Origin: an uncultured Candidatus Saccharibacteria bacterium
GTDB lineage: Bacteria > Patescibacteriota > Saccharimonadia > Saccharimonadales > JAGQNJ01
Assembly: GCA_964493895.1 (NCBI GenBank)
Contig: CAZBPY010000002.1
Span: forward strand, 3,351 to 67,350
DNA length: 64,000 nucleotides
Reading direction: 5' to 3'
Positions 9,855 to 29,101 of the stretch are shown here, one piece after another. Positions within the stretch are counted from its first letter, which is position 1. Every line of letters begins with the position of its first letter. The translations under genes and the position numbers were made by a program. Below the pieces are notes generated by a model. The model searched no databases, was not told the origin of the DNA, and was given only the letters and a program-made list of their open reading frames with translations.

Positions 9855-10545
9855 AATCGGCCGAAAGTTCGTATATTACATTTTTTCGTTCAATAACAAT
9901 TGGCCAACCGCGCCGACGGGCTTCATCAAATAACTCACGATTTGGGTTAAAAGCGATTGGATTTTCAACCATTTCCAGCATCGGGATGTCACTGGCGCTA
10001 TCTCCCACCCCATAACTATCCCTTAGGCTAAGGTTGTGCTTTTCAATCAGCATTTTAAGAGCCTGGGCTTTATCGTCGGCAAAAAACACTTGCTTGCCGG
10101 TGTAGCGGCCATTGTCGTGCAAAAACTGGGTGCCCAAATAATCGTCAAAATTGTATTGCCGGCCGACCTGCTCGACTAATTCTTGGTGCGAACCGGAAAT
10201 GGCCAACAAAACATAACCTTTCTTTTTCAACTCAGTCGCCAACTCCCGAGTATAGGCATAAGTCTGCTGTCGGTACTCCTTGGCAACCTCCTTGGCAACT
10301 TTTGTGAACTCAGCCACTTTTAGGTTTGGCAGAGCTGCCTCATAAGCAGCTATGACGGCCTTTTCATACTGCCGAAAGGCGTCTGCATGTTCGCGGCGCT
10401 TCCAAATCATTCGGGCATCTTTAATTTTTTGATGAGCCCCTTTGCCCAGCAGTCCGTACTTTGCCAAGCGTTCAATCACAGCATGGTAAAGCTGCCACCT
10501 TATCAGGGTGCCATCGATGTCGAAAACAGCGAACTTAGACATCAT
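9829..10545 (-). CDS. HAD-IB family hydrolase (phosphoserine phosphatase-like)
   Basis: 238 aa. Motif I FDIDGTL, motif III-IV region GVGDSASDIPMLEMVENPIAFNP. Confidence 0.8.
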   Translation of the reverse strand: MMSKFAVFDIDGTLIRWQLYHAVIERLAKYGLLGKGAHQKIKDARMIWKRREHADAFRQYEKAVIAAYEAALPNLKVAEFTKVAKEVAKEYRQQTYAYTRELATELKKKGYVLLAISGSHQELVEQVGRQYNFDDYLGTQFLHDNGRYTGKQVFFADDKAQALKMLIEKHNLSLRDSYGVGDSASDIPMLEMVENPIAFNPNRELFDEARRRGWPIVIERKNVIYELSADSTGAYHLD

Positions 10546-21078: not shown

Positions 21079-21163
21079 ATCAGCTCATTATGCCACTGTA
21101 ACCGAACGGTGTCAATATACTGACCGAAGTTCTTGGGAGTTTATTCTGCCAATTCCTTGATTT

Positions 21164-21189
21164 GTCCAGAACTTTTTTGCTGTTCTGAC
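21164..21189. repeat. hairpin GTCCAGAAC-N9-GTTCTGAC, related to the stems at 24870 and 26525
   Basis: The stem sequence is shared with the two terminator hairpins of the tRNA-Asn region. The flanks indicate inverted orientation relative to those copies. Confidence 0.6.
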
Positions 21190-21242
21190 TTTATACTGAA
21201 TCAAATGAAGCTAATTTTCGTGTATAGGTCTATACTGGTAGT

Positions 21243-22603
21243 ATGACTGATACTAAACGTTTGGTGCTTTGGATTTGTATTCTGGCGTCGTTTGTGCCGT
21301 TTCTTGATGGCTCTGTAGTGACCGTGGCGCTGCCGGCAATCACCCGCGATCTAGGTGGAGGCTTCGTGCTACAACAGTGGGTTGTCAATGCTTACGCTAT
21401 CACGCTGGGCGCGTTTATGTTGATAGCTGGGTCACTGGCTGACCTCTACGGGCGTCAGCGGATTATGAGGTATGGGTTGATTTTGTTTGGCGTGACATCG
21501 GTGTTGTGCGCTGTGGCTCCGACAGGAGGATTTCTGATTTTCGCCCGCGGCGCCCAGGGTCTGGCTGGCGCGATGTTGGTTCCCAGCTCATTGGCGCTCA
21601 TCATGGCTTATTTCAAGAAGACAGGGGCTGGCAAGGCTATCGGCAGCTGGACGGCCTGGACGGGGATGGCATTTATCATTGGTCCTTTGGTCGGTGGTAT
21701 GTTGGTCGATGTTGCGTCATGGCGGATGGTATTTGCCATTAACATCATTCCGATCGCCATAAACCTGTACATGTTGTCACGGCTTGATTTTGCGGAAGAG
21801 CTGCAATTAAAGGTAAGCCTAGATATGACTGGGGCATTGCTGGGTGCTGTGGGGCTGGGCGGAGTCGTATATGGCCTAATTGAGCAGTCGCGATTGGGGT
21901 GGGCCGATCCGTCGTTTTTGGTTCGATTATTGTCGGTGTAGTCGCGCTGGCTGGTTTTATCTGGCACGAGCGGCGCATCAAGCAACCCATGTTGCCACTT
22001 GGCCTTTTTCGAGTGCGAAATTTTTGGGTTGGTAACGTGGCGTCATTCGCTATATACGCCGGGCTGGCACTGGCAACCTTTGCTATTTCTATCTTTGTTC
22101 AGCAGGTTGGCGGTTACACTGCCTTCCAGGCCGGATTGGCGCTGCTGCCTATAACTATGATAATGCTTTTCTTGTCGTCACGCTTTGGGGAATGGGCTGG
22201 GCGCGTCGGGCCGCGGATGTTTATGACAGCAGGTCCATTGATTGCTGCCGCTGGATTTATGACCATGTATTTTGTCGATAAATCGGCTAAGTACTGGCAA
22301 CTCCTGCCAGGAATTTTGTTACTTGGTCTTGGGTTATCGGTGACGGTCGCACCGCTGACGACAGCGATTCTCGGCGCCATTAGCGATCAGCAATCCGGGA
22401 TCGCCTCGGCGATCAACAATGCCGTTACGCGTATAGCTGGGCTCATTGCCATAGCTGCGGTTGGTTCGCTGGTCGGTCAAACGCTCGGTCTGCCGGGCTT
22501 TCGGTCTATCGTGTTGGTCATGACCGGATTGATGGTAGTAGGGGGTGTTGTTTCAGCGATTGGAATCGTAAACCATCCCCCAAAATCTCACAAACCGACG
22601 TAA
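21243..22603 (+). pseudogene. MFS transporter (DHA2/EmrB-like) split by a single frameshift
   Basis: ORFs 21243..21941 and 21899..22603 are the N and C halves of one MFS protein. Adding one T to the T5 run at 21915-21919 gives ..LGWADPSFFGSIIVGVVALAGFIWHERR.. and a single ORF of about 453 aa. Confidence 0.8.
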
Positions 22604-23435: not shown

Positions 23436-23577
23436 CGTGAATACTTGCTGGATAGCCAATAAAATATATACTCTTGGCTCAGCATACCAGCCATGAATCC
23501 GACAACAGAGGTGAAGGACAAAAATTAGATACGAACATTGATCCTATATAATATTAGTATAAAAAGGAGCGAGTACG

Positions 23578-23997
23578 ATGAAGACATCTCTACACAGCTA
23601 CATTAGTTTTAATGGCAATGCGTCTGAAGCAATTGAATTTTACCGATCGGTTTTTGACGGAGAGGTAACCAGCAATACTTTTGGTGATTTTGCAGAGAGT
23701 ATGCCAAGTGCGCCAGAGGACAAAGATAAAATAATGCATGCGTTCATCAAAAACGATAAAGGCGTGGAATTTATGCTATCAGACATGCCAAGCAGTATGA
23801 CTTACTCTGATGGTCAAAGAGTAACCCTATGTCTTAACGGCGAAGACGAAGTGACCTTACGCGTGTATTGGGACAGGCTCACTGTTGATGGCAAGATTGA
23901 TGTGCCTTTTGAAAAAGCCCCATGGGGCGATATTTATGGTGCCTTGACCGACAAATTCGGCGTCAATTGGATGATCAACGTCGGCAAAGCCGAGTGA
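23578..23997 (+). CDS. VOC/glyoxalase-fold protein (PhnB/YjdN-like)
   Basis: 139 aa. C-terminal APWGDIYGALTDKFGVNWMIN is typical of the PhnB-like 3-demethylubiquinone methyltransferase-domain family. SD AAGGAG lies upstream. Confidence 0.7.
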   Translation: MKTSLHSYISFNGNASEAIEFYRSVFDGEVTSNTFGDFAESMPSAPEDKDKIMHAFIKNDKGVEFMLSDMPSSMTYSDGQRVTLCLNGEDEVTLRVYWDRLTVDGKIDVPFEKAPWGDIYGALTDKFGVNWMINVGKAE

Positions 23998-24048
23998 TCA
24001 TTGATGTCGATCAATCTAGGAGCTCGGTTTATCCTTAAGCTTTTTGGG

Positions 24049-24096
24049 TTGGCTCACAACGATAGAGAAAGTTACAGCTGCTATAAAGCACGATTT
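24049..24096. repeat. 48-bp cassette-junction element, copy B
   Basis: TTGGCTCACAACGATAGAGAAAGTTACAGCTGCTATAAAGCACGATTT. It lies between the convergent VOC and racemase genes, 11 nt from the racemase stop. Confidence 0.85.
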
Positions 24097-24107: not shown

Positions 24108-24797
24108 TTATGTAGTTATTTCTCGAACTGTCGCATCTGCAAGGATTTTCATAGTATCGAACATAGGTACTTGCTGACTGCTTGGAAGTAGTAGCTGTAG
24201 ATCGGTGCATGCCAAAGCAATGCAGTCCACACCCTGGGCTGCAAGACCATATGCTACTTCAAGAATGTCTTCTCTATCCTTATTAAGATGCTGGCCTTCA
24301 ATTAGGCGCTGGATGATCTTATCCATCTTCGCTTTCTGTAATTCATCAGGTGTAACGAATTCGATAGTGGCTTCTGCCAGTTTTCTTTCGTAGACGTGGT
24401 TTGCAACAGTTGCCGATGTGGAAATAAGACCAATTTTCGTGAACCCATTGGCCTTAAGGTGAGAGATTGTTTCCTCGACGATACTTAACACTGGAATGTT
24501 GACGGCTTCTCTAATTTCATTGATAAAAACATGTAGAGAGTTGCATGGCATTACTAGAAAATCTACGCCTGTTTTCTCTAGTCTTTGAGCTTCCGTTACT
24601 AAGAAAGGTATGTACCGCTCTTTGCCAGTGTTGCTTTCGATTAGATCGCGTTCGACTTCGAGTAATAAGGGTACGCTCGAAACGACAACCAAAGGGCGTT
24701 GAGGAAGGCCAAGTTTCTGACAGCCAAAAATAATTTCAAGGTAAAACTCTGCTGTTGTTTCAGGCCCGAGGCCACCAATAACTCCAACTGATTTCAT
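24108..24797 (-). CDS. aspartate/glutamate racemase family protein
   Basis: 229 aa. MKSVGVIGGLGPETT, MPCNSLH and LACTDL supply the two catalytic Cys regions of the Asp/Glu racemase fold. Confidence 0.85.
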   Translation of the reverse strand: MKSVGVIGGLGPETTAEFYLEIIFGCQKLGLPQRPLVVVSSVPLLLEVERDLIESNTGKERYIPFLVTEAQRLEKTGVDFLVMPCNSLHVFINEIREAVNIPVLSIVEETISHLKANGFTKIGLISTSATVANHVYERKLAEATIEFVTPDELQKAKMDKIIQRLIEGQHLNKDREDILEVAYGLAAQGVDCIALACTDLQLLLPSSQQVPMFDTMKILADATVREITT

Positions 24798-24869
24798 AAT
24801 ACTAATAGTAGCGCATTTTCTCTGTAAATGGATACTAGATTTGGCTTCAACTCTACTCTGGGTATGAAA

Positions 24870-24898
24870 AAGTCAGAACCTAATATCAGTTCTGACTT
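24870..24898 (-). terminator. rho-independent terminator-like hairpin (duplicate of the tRNA-Asn terminator)
   Basis: The minus strand reads AAGTCAGAAC-tgatattag-GTTCTGACTT followed by TTTCAT. It is part of the 73-bp duplicated module 24846-24918. Confidence 0.5.
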
Positions 24899-24911
24899 CA
24901 ACTTGTTTGGC

Positions 24912-24957
24912 TTGGCTTACAACGATAGAGGAAGTCATAACTGCGATCAAGCAGGAT
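24912..24957. repeat. 48-bp cassette-junction element, copy C
   Basis: TTGGCTTACAACGATAGAGGAAGTCATAACTGCGATCAAGCAGGAT. It ends 3 nt before the stop of ORF 24961..25323. Confidence 0.85.
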
Positions 24958-24960
24958 ACT

Positions 24961-25323
24961 CTAGCTTTCGTGAGTTGACCTTGCTTCATTCACTGCTGCT
25001 CTAATATCTTCTGGGCTGATTCCGAATTTACGAGGAATAGGAATCGTGAGTTCGATTTCAGTTCCTGTGGATATAGTGCCCAGGACCCGCATTAACGTTA
25101 TGCCTATGATTTTGCCCTCTCTGTCAAAGCCTACTACATGACCTTCAGGCGTCCATTTGCCCGAACCGCCACCTTCATTCGGAGTTGAATTACTGAGATA
25201 TAAAGTATCATGCCCCTCTAGGTAATCAACTTCGGAAAAGGAAAAAGGCCCAACATGAAAAAGTCCATCATCTTCTGATCTGATTAGTCTTAAAGAAGGT
25301 ATTTCACCACCAAAATCTACCAT
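24961..25323 (-). CDS. hypothetical protein, possibly DUF2283-like
   Basis: 120-aa ORF. HDTLYLSN...GHVVGFDREGKIIGITLM weakly resembles DUF2283. Confidence 0.45.
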   Translation of the reverse strand: MVDFGGEIPSLRLIRSEDDGLFHVGPFSFSEVDYLEGHDTLYLSNSTPNEGGGSGKWTPEGHVVGFDREGKIIGITLMRVLGTISTGTEIELTIPIPRKFGISPEDIRAAVNEARSTHES

Positions 25324-25360
25324 ACAGTAAAAATATCACAAAAGTGGTATTTAGTCAAAC

Positions 25361-25408
25361 TTGGCTCACAATAATAGAGGAAGTCATAACTGTAATTAAG
25401 CAAGATTT
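25361..25408. repeat. 48-bp cassette-junction element, copy D
   Basis: TTGGCTCACAATAATAGAGGAAGTCATAACTGTAATTAAGCAAGATTT. It lies 3' of ORF 25432..25782. Confidence 0.85.
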
Positions 25409-25431
25409 GCTGGGAAACAAATACATAGAAA

Positions 25432-25782
25432 CTATTGTTGGGAAGGCATGACGGATACCTCTAAAGTGCCAATCACGTCTGAAAGTAATTCAGATGCGTC
25501 AGGATGGCTTGGTCTAAGAATCTCCCAGTAAGCAGAACTAAGTTGTTGGCATTCAGCCGTTTCACATCCCCCAAGATGTATGCCTACTTCTAAATCTATC
25601 GGAAATCTTGGCTCAGGATCATTGGCGACGTACATACTTCTAGCCATGATAAACCACTGCTGACGTGCTTCATCGCATGGTATCTCAGTACGAATCTCGC
25701 CAGCTTCAATTGCGTCAAGGCTTCGCTCAATTTGTTCTTCACGCTTAGCTCCCCAGCCGACAAATGGGTCCTGTTCACTCAT
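25432..25782 (-). CDS. hypothetical protein (116 aa)
   Basis: Start moved to the ATG at 25782 (MSEQDPFVGW). The track start at 25818 is TTG and lies 5 nt from repeat copy E (25823-25870). No family recognised. Confidence 0.45.
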   Translation of the reverse strand: MSEQDPFVGWGAKREEQIERSLDAIEAGEIRTEIPCDEARQQWFIMARSMYVANDPEPRFPIDLEVGIHLGGCETAECQQLSSAYWEILRPSHPDASELLSDVIGTLEVSVMPSQQ

Positions 25783-25822
25783 AAAACAAAAAATATCAAC
25801 ATTAGTGATATTTTGCAAATGC

Positions 25823-25870
25823 TTGGCTCAGCACAATAGAGGAAGTTATAACTGTAATAAAGCGAGATTT
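25823..25870. repeat. 48-bp cassette-junction element, copy E
   Basis: TTGGCTCAGCACAATAGAGGAAGTTATAACTGTAATAAAGCGAGATTT. It lies 3' of the RibD_C-like gene. Confidence 0.85.
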
Positions 25871-25930
25871 AACTCATGTAAACTAGAATTAGCTTGATCT
25901 ATTTAACTCAAATTCGCATTCAGTAGAGCA

Positions 25931-26473
25931 CTATTTTACAACTTGGAAACGTAAATGCGTTTCACCAGCAAACGCTGATGTGTCTAATCTTTTAAGCTGG
26001 ATCTTCTTTCCCAGTCCCTCGAACAATGAAATTCCCTCGCCAAGTAACAAAGGTTCTACATCAAGTATGATTTCATCAACTAGTCCTAGCTTCAAGCACT
26101 GCCGTGAGATACTACCGCCAAGTAAACTGACATTTTTATCGCCAGCGGCCACTTTTGCTTTTTCAACTGCTAGCTTTATATCGTCCACGACGAAATTATA
26201 TGTTACACCATCCTTCTCTACTGGCTCATGAGCTTCGTGAGTCATGAGAAATACAGGAACTTTTACAGTGCCTCCATATGGCACGCCATCATCTTCGATA
26301 GTATTTGTTTTGTTTGATCCACCGACTATGGCTCCAATTTCGGCTGTTACTTTATTGACTACTGCATAATCTTCGTCAACCGCTTCGAGATCCTGCATCC
26401 AGCTCATGTCGCCATCGACACCTGCCATAAATCCATCGAGTGTTATTGTTGCGTGAATAAATACTTTTCCCAT
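25931..26473 (-). CDS. dihydrofolate reductase-like (RibD C-terminal domain) family protein
   Basis: 180 aa. MGKVFIHATITLDGFMAG, LLGGSISRQ and DEIILDVEPLLLGEG are typical of RibD_C family reductases. Confidence 0.8.
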   Translation of the reverse strand: MGKVFIHATITLDGFMAGVDGDMSWMQDLEAVDEDYAVVNKVTAEIGAIVGGSNKTNTIEDDGVPYGGTVKVPVFLMTHEAHEPVEKDGVTYNFVVDDIKLAVEKAKVAAGDKNVSLLGGSISRQCLKLGLVDEIILDVEPLLLGEGISLFEGLGKKIQLKRLDTSAFAGETHLRFQVVK

Positions 26474-26524
26474 AGAACTATCATAGCAAAAGAGGCGGTT
26501 TCAATTCTACTTAGGGTATATAAA

Positions 26525-26554
26525 AAGTCAGAACCATCTTCACAGTTCTGACTT
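26525..26554 (-). terminator. rho-independent terminator of tRNA-Asn
   Basis: The minus strand reads AAGTCAGAAC-tgtgaagatg-GTTCTGACTT followed by TTTATAT, starting 15 nt after the tRNA 3' end. Confidence 0.6.
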
Positions 26555-26568
26555 TGTCTGTTCCGGCT

Positions 26569-26643
26569 TGGCTCCCGGGGCCGGACTCGAACCGGCAACC
26601 TTGAAGTTAACAGCTTCCTGCTCCACCATTGAGCTACCCGGGA
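26569..26643 (-). tRNA. tRNA-Asn (anticodon GTT), encoded CCA
   Basis: Reverse complement reads TCCCGGGTAGCTCAATGGTGGAGCAGGAAGCTGTTAACTTCAAGGTTGCCGGTTCGAGTCCGGCCCCGGGAGCCA. Cloverleaf fits, with anticodon loop CTGTTAA. Confidence 0.9.
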
Positions 26644-26691: not shown

Positions 26692-27288
26692 CTAAATTAG
26701 GGTTACTAGGCGATCTAGGACGCGTTGGTAATGACGATCAATTCCATTTGGAGTGAATTCGTCACTATGCACGAAACGGATTCCACCCATCTCGCGAGCC
26801 TCCCTTTTCTCCAGAGAGGCTACTTCTTCCCAGCTAGCCAACGATATGCCTTCATCGATCACATAAGTGGCATTGCCGAAAAGTGGGTTTTCGGCAACCG
26901 CGATGGTGCGCTGATCATCCCTGATCGTCAAGACCATATAGGGCAGCACTGTGGCTAGGGACCCAGGACGTCCACGCATCAGCTCTACTTGATAACCGCT
27001 AGACCTTAGGACATCGCCAAGTTCTATCAGACCGGCTAATCTTTCCCAGTTGACTTTGTGTGAATGGGTACTACCAACGTTCGTTTCAAAATCGCGTTTA
27101 ATGTCATCGACTCGTGTTCCCGGAGGAAAGATTCTTACATCTAAGAACTTCGCCCCTTTTAGTAATTCAATTGGAGCCGATGGGGTACCGGGTTCATTAC
27201 TGGGTTCTTCCTCGAGCGGTGTCTCGAGCCGCGGGTTCGGCCTCCGACACCGGTTCTGGTTCAATAGCAGGAAGTTCTTGAACTGCAT
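26692..27288 (-). CDS. hypothetical protein (198 aa; start uncertain)
   Basis: Long ORF whose first 92 nt overlap the end of the upstream 634-aa ORF in another frame. I saw no SD before the ATG at 27288. No family recognised. Confidence 0.45.
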   Translation of the reverse strand: MQFKNFLLLNQNRCRRPNPRLETPLEEEPSNEPGTPSAPIELLKGAKFLDVRIFPPGTRVDDIKRDFETNVGSTHSHKVNWERLAGLIELGDVLRSSGYQVELMRGRPGSLATVLPYMVLTIRDDQRTIAVAENPLFGNATYVIDEGISLASWEEVASLEKREAREMGGIRFVHSDEFTPNGIDRHYQRVLDRLVTLI

Positions 27289-29101
27289 TAGCTAACAGGT
27301 AATGCTTGAGAATATTGCGAATTTCACTTGGCACGTTGGGATTGCGTGAAGCCAGCTCGGCATTGGCAGCCAGCCATTCATAGGCCGTCACAAAATTGCG
27401 CATTAGTTGCAATGTCTCGCGATGTTGGTTGGGAAGTTGCTGTATTGATTCCAGCAGCGCACTTATCTCTTGGTAGGTTCCATCCATTGCTTCGCGCACC
27501 AGCTTCGGTTGATCCTGAATGAACCTTTCGCCCAGACGATGTAAGAATGAGCTTACTGACTTGGCGATCTCCCTATCATCAAGACCAGTGATCTGGATTC
27601 GCCCGTCAGCGCCCTTAATACCTCTACGCAAACTATTGGTGAACGGCAGACCAGGCCCTTCTCGTGCTCGGAGCTGTTTGTTGCCCATAAAATAGTCTAG
27701 GGCAGCATGCTGCAGTTCTGCCATCTGCTCAAGCTCAAAAGCCGGTTTTCTAGGATGTCCATTAATAGACCTATCGCGTTTGGCTGCTTGTTTGATTTCC
27801 TCATGCAGCGTCATGGCGCCTACATGTTTGATGCGCTGCCTAAGGTCTCGAATTCGAGCTCCATACTCTTCCCTTCTCTCTTCTCTAAGTGGTTGGGTTG
27901 CCTGACGCTCGGCCTGGCCTAATCTGCGGCTGTAAGTATGGATAAAGTCTTCGATCTCCAGAAGATAAACCATTTGCTCGGGTGTGGGTTCTGGTGTATC
28001 TTGTACAATCTGATTGAAACGCTCTTTAAGGGCTACTAGGTGGGATAATTCTATTCCTACCACTGACGCCTGTATAGGCGCAATCATTAATTGAAAGTCG
28101 GTGTTAAAGTCTTTAAATTGGGCTTTAGCTAATGCGAAGCTCATAGGGGTGAGCACAGCTCCACGCATGATACTCAAGATCTGATTTTGCGCTTCTTTCT
28201 GCTTAGCCTGACGGCCCTTGAAAAAGCTGTCATGATGTTTGGCGCGAGCAATAAGCTCGGCCTCGTAACTTATGCCTTGGATAAGTTGGGCAAGCCGTTT
28301 CGGACTATGCTCGGTTTCATAATAGTGACTTAGATTATCGCTTAAAAGACACAAGGCCTGAGCGACATAATTATCGTCATACTCTGAAACATCCCTTACC
28401 TTTATTGATTTCATCAATTTTTGTACGTCAGCGTGCTCAAGGAACCTAGCTAAGGCAACCACTCTCATACCTGTCAAGATTTTCATCTCAGCTTCGCTGG
28501 GGATACGAGCCGCCACTTTTCGTGCGTCACCTACCATGCTGTCAATCTTGGTAACTAACTCCTCGATTGCTCCCATAGTCTCTACAGGGCCGTTAAAATC
28601 CTCTACCTTGGGTTGAGTCGGAATTTCGCTGGCGCCTTCCAAAGTCCCTATTTCGCCGATATCTGCATCTTTTAGGCGGTCTAAAATTTCAGGTAAGGCT
28701 AAGATCAGCCCCCGCTTATCTGGGCGAACCTTGAACTGTGTAATGGCGCCAGCTGCTGTCTCTTGGCTAGGGTCTCTGGCTACAATACTGGTGCTTTGTG
28801 AGGCATAAGTTAGACATCCACCAATTACTGCTAGGTCGCTTAATGTTTCCATAGGCAAATGGTTATAAAGTGGTGCATATACGGTTGAACGCTCTGACTC
28901 TCCTTCTACACGGGCAGCCAAAGTCGCCATAGCTTCCTTTGAGCCAAGCAGGCTCTCCGAAGCCTGTTCGCACATTGTGATGGTTTCTTGATGGGGAGTG
29001 ATATCCTCATTGGCATCAGGAGCCAAAAATACATCTTTAAATGGGTTCTGAGGTGAAAGCTCCGGCACTGGCGGACCTTGTGGACCAAGTGTAAGTGACA
29101 T
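27197..29101 (-). CDS. hypothetical protein (634 aa, helical-looking orphan)
   Basis: Uninterrupted 1.9-kb ORF beginning 38 nt after the smpB stop. No TM segment, no nucleotide-binding or catalytic motif recognised, and a Pro/Glu-rich C-terminal linker. Confidence 0.6.
   Translation of the reverse strand: MSLTLGPQGPPVPELSPQNPFKDVFLAPDANEDITPHQETITMCEQASESLLGSKEAMATLAARVEGESERSTVYAPLYNHLPMETLSDLAVIGGCLTYASQSTSIVARDPSQETAAGAITQFKVRPDKRGLILALPEILDRLKDADIGEIGTLEGASEIPTQPKVEDFNGPVETMGAIEELVTKIDSMVGDARKVAARIPSEAEMKILTGMRVVALARFLEHADVQKLMKSIKVRDVSEYDDNYVAQALCLLSDNLSHYYETEHSPKRLAQLIQGISYEAELIARAKHHDSFFKGRQAKQKEAQNQILSIMRGAVLTPMSFALAKAQFKDFNTDFQLMIAPIQASVVGIELSHLVALKERFNQIVQDTPEPTPEQMVYLLEIEDFIHTYSRRLGQAERQATQPLREERREEYGARIRDLRQRIKHVGAMTLHEEIKQAAKRDRSINGHPRKPAFELEQMAELQHAALDYFMGNKQLRAREGPGLPFTNSLRRGIKGADGRIQITGLDDREIAKSVSSFLHRLGERFIQDQPKLVREAMDGTYQEISALLESIQQLPNQHRETLQLMRNFVTAYEWLAANAELASRNPNVPSEIRNILKHYLLANAVQELPAIEPEPVSEAEPAARDTARGRTQ

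Follow-up and report, generated by a model that had tools for sequence, protein, structure and literature searches.

The 64,000-nucleotide stretch of DNA analysed here (the window) belongs to an uncultured Candidatus Saccharibacteria bacterium (contig CAZBPY010000002.1 of assembly GCA_964493895.1) and carries two similar copies of a hairpin-bearing module, designated T1, downstream of a tRNA-Asn gene. We consider it probable that each of these two T1 copies forms the 5′ end of one cassette and that the array of four cassettes was built up by site-specific insertions at the tRNA-Asn 3′ end, with a large serine recombinase (LSR) as the probable enzyme. Each cassette is closed by a short element, EL1, whose final six bases, GAGCCA, are also the final six bases of the tRNA (the discriminator plus CCA). 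The same architecture was recognised in more than 150 Saccharimonadales contigs.

The T1 module and the EL1 element

The tRNA-Asn(gtt) gene is located on the minus strand (26569-26643), was identified by ARAGORN and by the Rfam tRNA model (63.7 bits), and has an encoded CCA. Read on its own strand, from 26643 to 26569, the tRNA ends in ...CCCGGGAGCCA and is followed directly by T1. Its last six nucleotides (26569-26574) represent the core shared with EL1 and the proposed insertion point. The four cassettes that follow comprise 745, 462, 449, and 863 bp, each in the order module, open reading frame (ORF), EL1. The modules that come after GAGCCA are T1 behind the tRNA and behind the third EL1, and a second type, T2, behind the first and the second EL1.

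Local alignment of positions 24843-24917 with 26497-26573 gave 61 identical columns of 78 (78%), in agreement with the roughly 75-80% similarity that a first-pass annotation of this DNA had estimated by eye. The alignment score of 40 is far above that of 500 shuffles (7.9 ± 1.5, maximum 16), and no third partner with a comparable score is present elsewhere in the 64-kb window. As calculated from the alignment, the hairpin arms account for approximately 24 of the identical columns, and the other ~54 columns are ~69% identical; the similarity is thus not confined to the stem.

Both copies lie on the minus strand. The tRNA-proximal one (26497-26568) is delimited by alignment, fold, promoter-like site, and family context; the distal one (24843-24912) is delimited by alignment and hairpin and adjoins EL1 in place of the tRNA. 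Each starts directly after a GAGCCA/AG junction (the slash marks the boundary) and is composed of AG, 12 further nucleotides, the hairpin AAGTCAGAAC..GTTCTGACTT, a T-run, and a promoter-like tail, which reads TATACCCTAAGTAGAATTGAAACC in the tRNA-proximal copy. The exact hairpin AAGTCAGAAC-N9/10-GTTCTGACTT occurs at only two places in the window, namely in the two T1 copies, with none expected by chance. On the tRNA strand, T1 folds into stems of 12-14 bp followed by UUUUU, with energies of -15.6 kcal/mol (distal) and -24.6 kcal/mol (tRNA-proximal; z = -3.5). The hairpin begins 14 nt past the end of the tRNA or EL1 and has the characteristics of a rho-independent terminator. A simple terminator scanner missed T1, since it allowed for loops of 3-8 nt only and paired 10-nt arms, which leaves loops of 9-10 nt. 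Folding thus predicts that T1 works as the terminator of the tRNA or of the preceding cassette, and the earlier description of the module as the terminator and downstream flank of tRNA-Asn is borne out by the hairpin and U-run directly 3′ of this gene. The tail of the tRNA-proximal copy includes a promoter-like CTGACT-16-TAGAAT (26531-26504), by which T1 probably also supplies a promoter; we infer a promoter function of this kind for the junction modules in general.

A degenerate T1-like hairpin, CCAGAAC-N9-GTTCTGACTTTATA, was also seen at positions 21160-21195 of the window. It is located on the plus strand, in the orientation opposite to that of the array, upstream of a major facilitator superfamily (MFS) transporter gene split into two overlapping ORFs (21243-21941 and 21899-22603), which is probably frameshifted.

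The EL1 element comprises 47-49 nt and is present in four copies, with plus-strand starts at 24048, 24911, 25360, and 25822; none is expected by chance, and within the 64 kb EL1 is restricted to the array. The first-pass annotation had reported a 48-bp repeated element. The repeat is real, but its size varies between 47 and 49 nt, and there are four copies rather than three. On the tRNA strand, EL1 reads AAATCTTGCTTAATTRCAGTTATRACTTCCTCTATYGTTGTGAGCCA/AG, and each copy closes one minus-strand gene. The tRNA and EL1 both end in GAGCCA/AG and are both followed by the same module, so that EL1 indeed holds the position of the tRNA 3′ end, as had been proposed. Altogether, 181 copies of EL1, 166 of them distinct, were collected over all loci studied. 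The 166 distinct copies are strongly conserved between ATC and GAGCCA, but no conservation is left 2-3 nt past CCA. The element includes a 10-bp palindrome, AGTTATAACT, and can be aligned gap-free with EL3 and EL4, two further classes of GAGCCA-ending sites, when all three are anchored at the core. Neither EL1 nor T1 was present in the viral contigs scanned.

Several other identities were considered for EL1. A 3′ fragment of tRNA-Asn was rejected, as only 8-9 nt align; the stretch common to EL1 and the tRNA in the window is limited to GAGCCAAG(C), and direct repeats of a partial tRNA do not occur there. An attC-like hairpin or a structured RNA was rejected as well, because no stable or conserved fold is formed on either strand. 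Namely, DNA folds of the four window copies on both strands were no better than those of shuffles (z from -1.05 to +1.7), RNAalifold returned 0.0 kcal/mol on both strands for 119 EL1 copies, with neither compensatory changes nor covariation, and the candidate 7-bp helix TTATAAC/GTTGTGA displayed no compensatory change in these 119 copies. The only Rfam matches in the window were tRNAs. Finally, EL1 does not fit a miniature inverted-repeat transposable element (MITE) or a repetitive extragenic palindromic (REP)-type repeat, being directional, devoid of terminal inverted repeats, and confined to the array in the window.

Junctions and cassettes in other genomes

A pattern derived from EL1 retrieved 40 loci from a one-genome-per-species collection, nearly all of them in metagenome-assembled genomes (MAGs) of Candidatus Saccharimonadales. 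With a profile built from the four window copies and applied to 8-kb loci, one to four strong EL1 copies were detected per locus and never in mixed orientation within one locus. A co-oriented tRNA-Asn was located upstream of the EL1 array wherever the locus extended far enough, and the window synteny upstream of the tRNA (smpB and neighbouring genes) was retained in at least 17 loci. In the 40 genome loci, T1 was in every case preceded by GAGCCA(AG) plus 12 nt. GAGCCA is followed by a few recurrent module types, all with a hairpin and a T-run, and these types are common to the tRNA and EL1: T1 follows 7 of 12 tRNA-Asn genes and 17 of 66 EL1 copies, and a third type, T3, follows two tRNAs and three EL1 copies. 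A module of the T2 type was also located 3′ of EL1 in locus L007 (loci from other genomes carry numbers prefixed with L). In Saccharimonadales, T1 is the commonest flank of tRNA-Asn.

An independent metagenome scan was performed with the T1 hairpin alone; the counts given here are among the matches listed (120 loci). Since the core was found 12-14 nt upstream of the hairpin in 108 of the 120 listed loci, the others being unrelated hairpins, T1 is one member of a family of modules that mark GAGCCA junctions. Upstream of the core at 112 T1 junctions among the matches listed were full tRNA-Asn genes (19), EL1 (21), partial tRNA-Asn 3′ ends (22), sites of the EL2-EL5 classes (29), other sequences (20), and one tRNA-Trp with the core CTGCCA. 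An intact tRNA thus adjoins only about one-sixth of the T1 copies listed. The one with tRNA-Trp is in locus L112 (3602-3720, T1 on the plus strand), where a T1-like module follows CTGCCA/AG.

The two T1 copies of the window are diverged members of this large family and not the result of a recent local duplication, because they are only 78% alike. The module had been described as duplicated; two similar copies do exist in the window, but they belong to a family of more than 150 copies that travel with cassettes. The distal T1, beside the racemase gene of the last cassette, would be the older junction if new cassettes are added at the tRNA.

By eye, a GC-rich hairpin with a T-run was also seen after the terminal EL1 in approximately 10 genomes (L005, L012, L013, L023, L024, L029, and others), in several of them followed by a semi-conserved TTCTGG... 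stretch. It could represent the chromosomal sequence that originally bordered the hotspot.

Evidence for mobility is provided by cassettes shared between genomes. Four species-level genomes share, at 95-100% identity, a cassette with a VIT1-like gene and an 83-aa ORF. The shared stretch runs from GAGCC(A)AG precisely to GTGAGCCA, and its neighbours differ on both sides: upstream there is a tRNA in L016, EL1 in L033, and another end, GGGGAGCCA, in L038, and downstream there are three module types. In L038, the core is not included in the identical stretch, which sets in at the T1 hairpin. The 83-codon gene itself is 100% identical at the nucleotide level across L016, L025, L033, and L038, which represent different species in the GTDB; sequence identity of this degree indicates a very recent inter-species transfer. 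Other cassettes change their rank in the array from one genome to another, and near-identical cassettes occupy different positions in different species. These include cassettes with a copper ATPase and a CsoR-like gene, an oxidoreductase and an HxlR-like gene, a DUF1697-like gene, and a histidine phosphatase gene, as far as the functions can be read from the sequences themselves. The dinucleotide after CCA (AG, TG, and others) travels with the downstream cassette.

Serial insertion at the tRNA end is illustrated directly by a pair of empty and occupied sites. The flanks of L132 and L071 are 100% identical on both sides, and the two loci differ by a cassette of 1.07 kb. The empty site in L132 has the structure tRNA-Asn...GGGAGCCA/AGCTGG-T1. 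In L071, a hairpin module, a 248-aa ORF, and an EL2 site ending in GCTGAGCCA are inserted exactly between GAGCCA(A) and (A)GCTGG, and T1 is now located 3′ of EL2 rather than of the tRNA. This shift of T1 away from the tRNA supports the suggestion of the first-pass annotation that serial integration at the tRNA leaves a displaced old junction. The ends of the L071 insert share 7 bp only (GAGCCAA), and homologous recombination is therefore excluded for this event.

As a general explanation, natural transformation followed by homologous recombination, with the tRNA, T1, and EL1 as homology arms and no dedicated recombinase, is quite improbable. In its favour, Saccharibacteria are reported to be naturally competent, the variable genes lie between sequences that are conserved in different species, namely T1 (~75 bp), EL1 (~47 bp), and the tRNA, and the identity in L038 from the T1 hairpin onwards is what a crossover inside T1 would give. 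A homology-driven process does not, however, account for the left end of the L071 insert, which has no homology beyond GAGCCAA, for the sharp GAGCCA boundaries in many unrelated combinations, or for the use of the same insertion point by LSR elements (see below). Site-specific recombination at GAGCCA is well supported by these sequence comparisons.

Turnover at the locus is also suggested by a comparison of the window with L132, which is moderately related. In L132, a Ham1 gene with 73% protein identity to that of the window is located directly after the last EL1. The window ham1 also lies after the array, behind a glyoxalase gene, and the two loci have no cassette in common between tRNA-Asn and ham1. 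As judged from gene order, this fits a complete turnover of cassettes within a fixed tRNA-Asn/ham1 bracket. In addition, where L020 possesses a complete tRNA-Asn, only an 18-nt end of this gene is present in its relative L017.

Candidate recombinase and proposed mechanism

The candidate enzyme was revealed in locus L108, where an ORF running into the tRNA-Asn 3′ end encodes a protein of 491 aa with Resolvase, Recombinase, and Zn_ribbon domains. After this LSR, the element carries ~9 kb of defence-like cargo and ends in ...CATCCACTAACGTGAGCCA/AG-T1. The family counts 1892 database relatives at E <= 1e-20; many of them are encoded on contigs of 0.3-1.2 Mb, and one is named as from Candidatus Saccharibacteria. 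Eight LSR loci were examined, namely L108 and seven loci (L161-L167) from six relatives. In six of the eight, the LSR (~490 aa) is located against a tRNA-Asn-type junction: in L108, L163, and L165, a complete tRNA-Asn adjoins or overlaps its 3′ end; this end abuts a partial tRNA-Asn end in L164, beside the same smpB and ATP-synthase neighbourhood as in the window, and abuts an EL2 site in L161 and L162. The elements of this Asn type are bounded by X-GAGCCA on both sides and end 5.5-9.3 kb away in an EL3 site, GTTGCGAAGTAYGTCCACTARCGGGAGCCA/, which itself ends in GAGCCA. EL1 cassettes are located downstream of EL3, in the same arrays as LSR elements, in L161, L162, L164, and L165. The most divergent LSR members (51-55% identity), in L166 and L167, abut tRNA-Trp(cca) (9990-10066 and 9983-10057, respectively, on the reverse complement). 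They look like a sister system at a second tRNA.

The LSR elements of L161-L167 carry a REP_ORF2-G2P, a DnaD_N/HTH_36, or a TrmB-like HTH gene upstream of the recombinase. Their cargo is made up of restriction-modification and defence genes, among them ABC-3C, SMC/AAA_21-type ATPase, KAP NTPase, and reverse transcriptase genes. An ORF of 48-50 aa, which may encode a directionality factor, overlaps the recombinase start in L163, L164, and L167; an ORF of 30 aa is located just upstream of it in L166. Antisense ORFs right after EL1 were also noticed in L011 (2137-2715) and L099 (5750-6268), where the elements are on the plus strand. They contain an FtsK-gamma-like winged-helix stretch and a C-terminal part similar to the recombinase C-terminus and could represent recombinase-gene remnants at the EL1 junctions.

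The following mechanism is proposed. A cassette, read on the tRNA strand, would consist of a T1 or T2 junction module, one or two genes, and a closing EL1 that ends in GAGCCA. An incoming circular cassette would land between the tRNA (or a resident EL1) and its former flank, with strand exchange in or at the 6-bp core GAGCCA, and the old flank would end up behind the newly inserted cassette, at its distal end. T1 would be carried along whenever a tRNA-proximal cassette moves, and it would recur beside EL1 for this reason. The enzyme would most likely be the ~490-aa LSR, of a family common in Saccharibacteria, and EL1 would represent the P-arm half of the LSR attP, retained by cassettes that have no recombinase of their own and depend on mobilisation in trans. 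Given that the recombination is site-specific, we see a somewhat better than even chance that this LSR family catalyses it. We infer both the exact crossover base and the action of the LSR on EL1 cassettes in trans.

Among serine integrases, attP half-sites differ from attB half-sites in that their zinc-ribbon motif is placed 5 bp further outwards from the centre. In tRNA/T1, GTTC (tRNA T-loop) and GAAC (T1 stem) are placed symmetrically, 21-24 nt on either side of CCA/, with GTTC at -24 and GAAC at +24, and the GTT of EL1, EL3, and EL4 is located 5 bp further out. This spacing and the 5-bp offset would fit the half-sites of serine integrases, which is suggestive only.

Several observations weigh against the LSR-built array. 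No recombinase was found in the 64-kb window, either with Pfam (ORFs of at least 150 aa) or with tblastn using the LSR; because of this, the window cassettes look non-autonomous and action in trans has to be assumed. EL1 is conserved on one side of the crossover only, while an LSR attP normally has two half-sites, and the P′ side would therefore be the variable module. A formal dyad-symmetry scan for the crossover gave no clear centre, promoter-like sites in the region do not exceed their frequency in shuffles, and no circular intermediate or excision event was observed. Furthermore, the four cassette genes of the window are absent from all other sampled arrays, so that the mobility of these particular cassettes is deduced from the family. 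The latter point also agrees with an array without any mobility, in which T1 and EL1 would be ordinary cis-regulatory sequences reused by neighbouring genes and the T1 pair an old local duplication, and T1 does make a good intrinsic terminator with a promoter-like site. We nevertheless regard this explanation as highly improbable, in view of the precise insertion, the cassettes shared between species at 95-100% identity, the junction rule, the restriction of EL1 to the array within 64 kb, and the low G+C content of the array (41% at 24-26 kb vs ~48% in the rest of the window).

An integron-type system, in which a tyrosine recombinase (IntI-like or another integrase) would use tRNA-Asn as attI and EL1 as an attC-like site, is unlikely. 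The cassettes are short, mostly single-gene, and co-oriented, and their end site shares a core of 6-8 bp with the primary site, an overlap typical of tyrosine recombinases. Against this stand the lack of a stable or conserved EL1 fold on either strand, the promoter-like modules that the cassettes have of their own, and the serine type of the recombinase at the junction. Also, no Phage_integrase domain was detected in window ORFs of at least 150 aa, and the upstream ORFs of 10 other loci were not recombinases by eye. Crude motif scans for tyrosine and serine recombinases in 1241 ORF segments from 160 loci returned none, a weak negative, as they missed even the real LSR.

The LSR-driven array described above can be extended to an integron-like capture platform: tRNA-Asn/T1 would be the landing pad, hundreds of promoter-bearing single-gene cassettes with EL1 as a half-attP and no recombinase would be captured, stacked, and exchanged among species in trans by a resident ~490-aa LSR family, a sister family would act likewise at tRNA-Trp, and the whole would be a main route of accessory genes. 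For this wider reading, we judge the chances to be even. With integrons, the array has in common a co-oriented, ordered set of small cassettes at one primary site, end sites conserved as a family, and shuffling between species. It differs from them in that Pfam revealed no IntI in window ORFs of at least 150 aa, in the missing attC hairpin, in a tRNA end as the primary site, in the promoter-like modules of the cassettes, and in the serine type of the associated recombinase.

Similarities also exist to other mobile elements. The staphylococcal cassette chromosome (SCC) forms tandem composite islands, including recombinase-less cassettes between short direct repeats. In the Enterococcus cassette chromosome (ECC), large serine recombinases insert at the 3′ end of a conserved gene, where variable cargo accumulates (PMC6222049). 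The Saccharimonadales system shares with SCCmec and ECC (CcrAB) the insertion at a specific 3′ gene end, a short core at both ends, and variable cargo. In contrast to SCC and ECC, its target is the end of tRNA-Asn (rlmH for SCC), the cassettes are mostly single-gene units of 0.45-1.1 kb, each with a 47-nt element and a module of its own, the host is a member of the candidate phyla radiation (CPR), and a single ~490-aa LSR is present instead of the CcrA/CcrB pair. An element-encoded LSR, as in LSR elements proper, is missing from the window but present at tRNA-Asn-type junctions in L108 and L161-L165. Cis-mobilizable elements (CIMEs) are non-autonomous, retain their att sites, and have no recombinase; they are decay products of integrative and conjugative elements (ICEs), with few per genome. 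The accretion of CIMEs with ICEs or integrative and mobilizable elements (IMEs) is similar in its tandem arrangement with autonomous elements at the same target and in the presumed mobilisation in trans. Unlike CIMEs, hundreds of distinct single-gene cassettes here bear a dedicated, conserved 47-nt site.

Tycheposons integrate at tRNA genes and consist of cargo, a replication module, and a recombinase of the tyrosine or large serine type; in Prochlorococcus islands, older elements are moved inward as new ones integrate in series, and remnants stay behind (10.1101/2020.12.28.424599). The LSR elements with their Rep- or DnaD-like genes and cargo are comparable. However, tycheposon repeats are partial tRNAs of ~40 nt, whereas the window repeat shares 6-9 nt with the tRNA; EL1 is a separate conserved family, and most units here have no hallmark genes. 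True partial tRNA-Asn ends, as in tycheposons, do occur elsewhere, namely in L017 and at the 22 of 112 T1 junctions among the matches listed. A reading of the window in terms of Prochlorococcus PRE1 or tycheposons was dropped, as the host taxon is Saccharimonadales.

No description of this cassette-capture system in Saccharibacteria or Patescibacteria was found in the literature, of which subscription journals were incompletely covered. The new features are a one-sided conserved 47-nt site on hundreds of promoter-carrying single-gene cassettes, a tRNA discriminator-CCA end as the exact core, and the host clade. A one-sided 47-nt site used by a serine recombinase would, if true, be mechanistically unusual. 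Saccharibacteria and other CPR bacteria are epibionts with ~1-Mb genomes, and little is understood of how they acquire accessory genes. A conserved landing pad with defined joints would account for the strain-level variation at the tRNA-Asn locus and for the occurrence, at 95-100% identity in different species, of cassettes with metal-resistance, detoxification, nucleotide-hygiene, and defence genes. If the platform reading is true, this would be one of the main ways in which accessory genes reach these reduced epibiont genomes. GAGCCA junctions with EL1 or T1 offer a precise marker for mining the flexible gene pool in metagenomes, and the natural attB/attP pairs together with the cognate serine integrase could become an integration tool for organisms that are hard to manipulate.

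Gene content of the array and its surroundings

All parts of the array are on the minus strand. Cassette 1 spans positions 26568 to 25824, encodes a 180-aa RibD_C-like reductase (25931-26473; Pfam PF01872, 6.8e-14), and is closed by an EL1 ending in ..GCTGAGCCA (25824-25870). The T2 module behind it (25783-25823), recognised from the sequence as AG, a short AT-rich hairpin, and a promoter-like stretch, abuts the next ATG. This ATG, at 25782, opens the 116-aa ORF of cassette 2 (25432-25782), which has no Pfam match and is followed by EL1 at 25362-25408. The second T2 (25324-25361) includes a promoter-like TTGACT-17-(TG)TATTTT (25358-25330) and leads into the 120-aa ORF of cassette 3 (24961-25323), also without a Pfam match. 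The EL1 that closes cassette 3 (24913-24959), labelled copy C in the first-pass annotation, ends in ..GTAAGCCA and is the one adjoined by the distal T1. Cassette 4 encodes a 229-aa Asp/Glu/hydantoin racemase (24108-24797; Pfam PF01177, 1.5e-38) and terminates in the last recognisable EL1 copy (24050-24096), next to which are the convergent glyoxalase and Ham1 genes.

Directly upstream of tRNA-Asn, between smpB and the tRNA, is a 634-aa ORF (27197-29101, minus strand), which overlaps the ORF at 26692-27288. It has no Pfam domain, and its sole match among 5.8 billion proteins is itself; this ORF is a lineage-specific orphan. Exact look-ups of three window proteins and the protein search with the 634-aa ORF revealed no close relative of the window genome.

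On the other side of the array, a stretch at 23468-23520 (CTTGGCTCAGCATACC...) is similar to the beginning of EL1, of which it may be a degraded copy. The glyoxalase/vicinal oxygen chelate (VOC) gene (23578-23997) is inverted and located outside the last EL1 in the window; its protein cluster occurs inside cassettes of other arrays.

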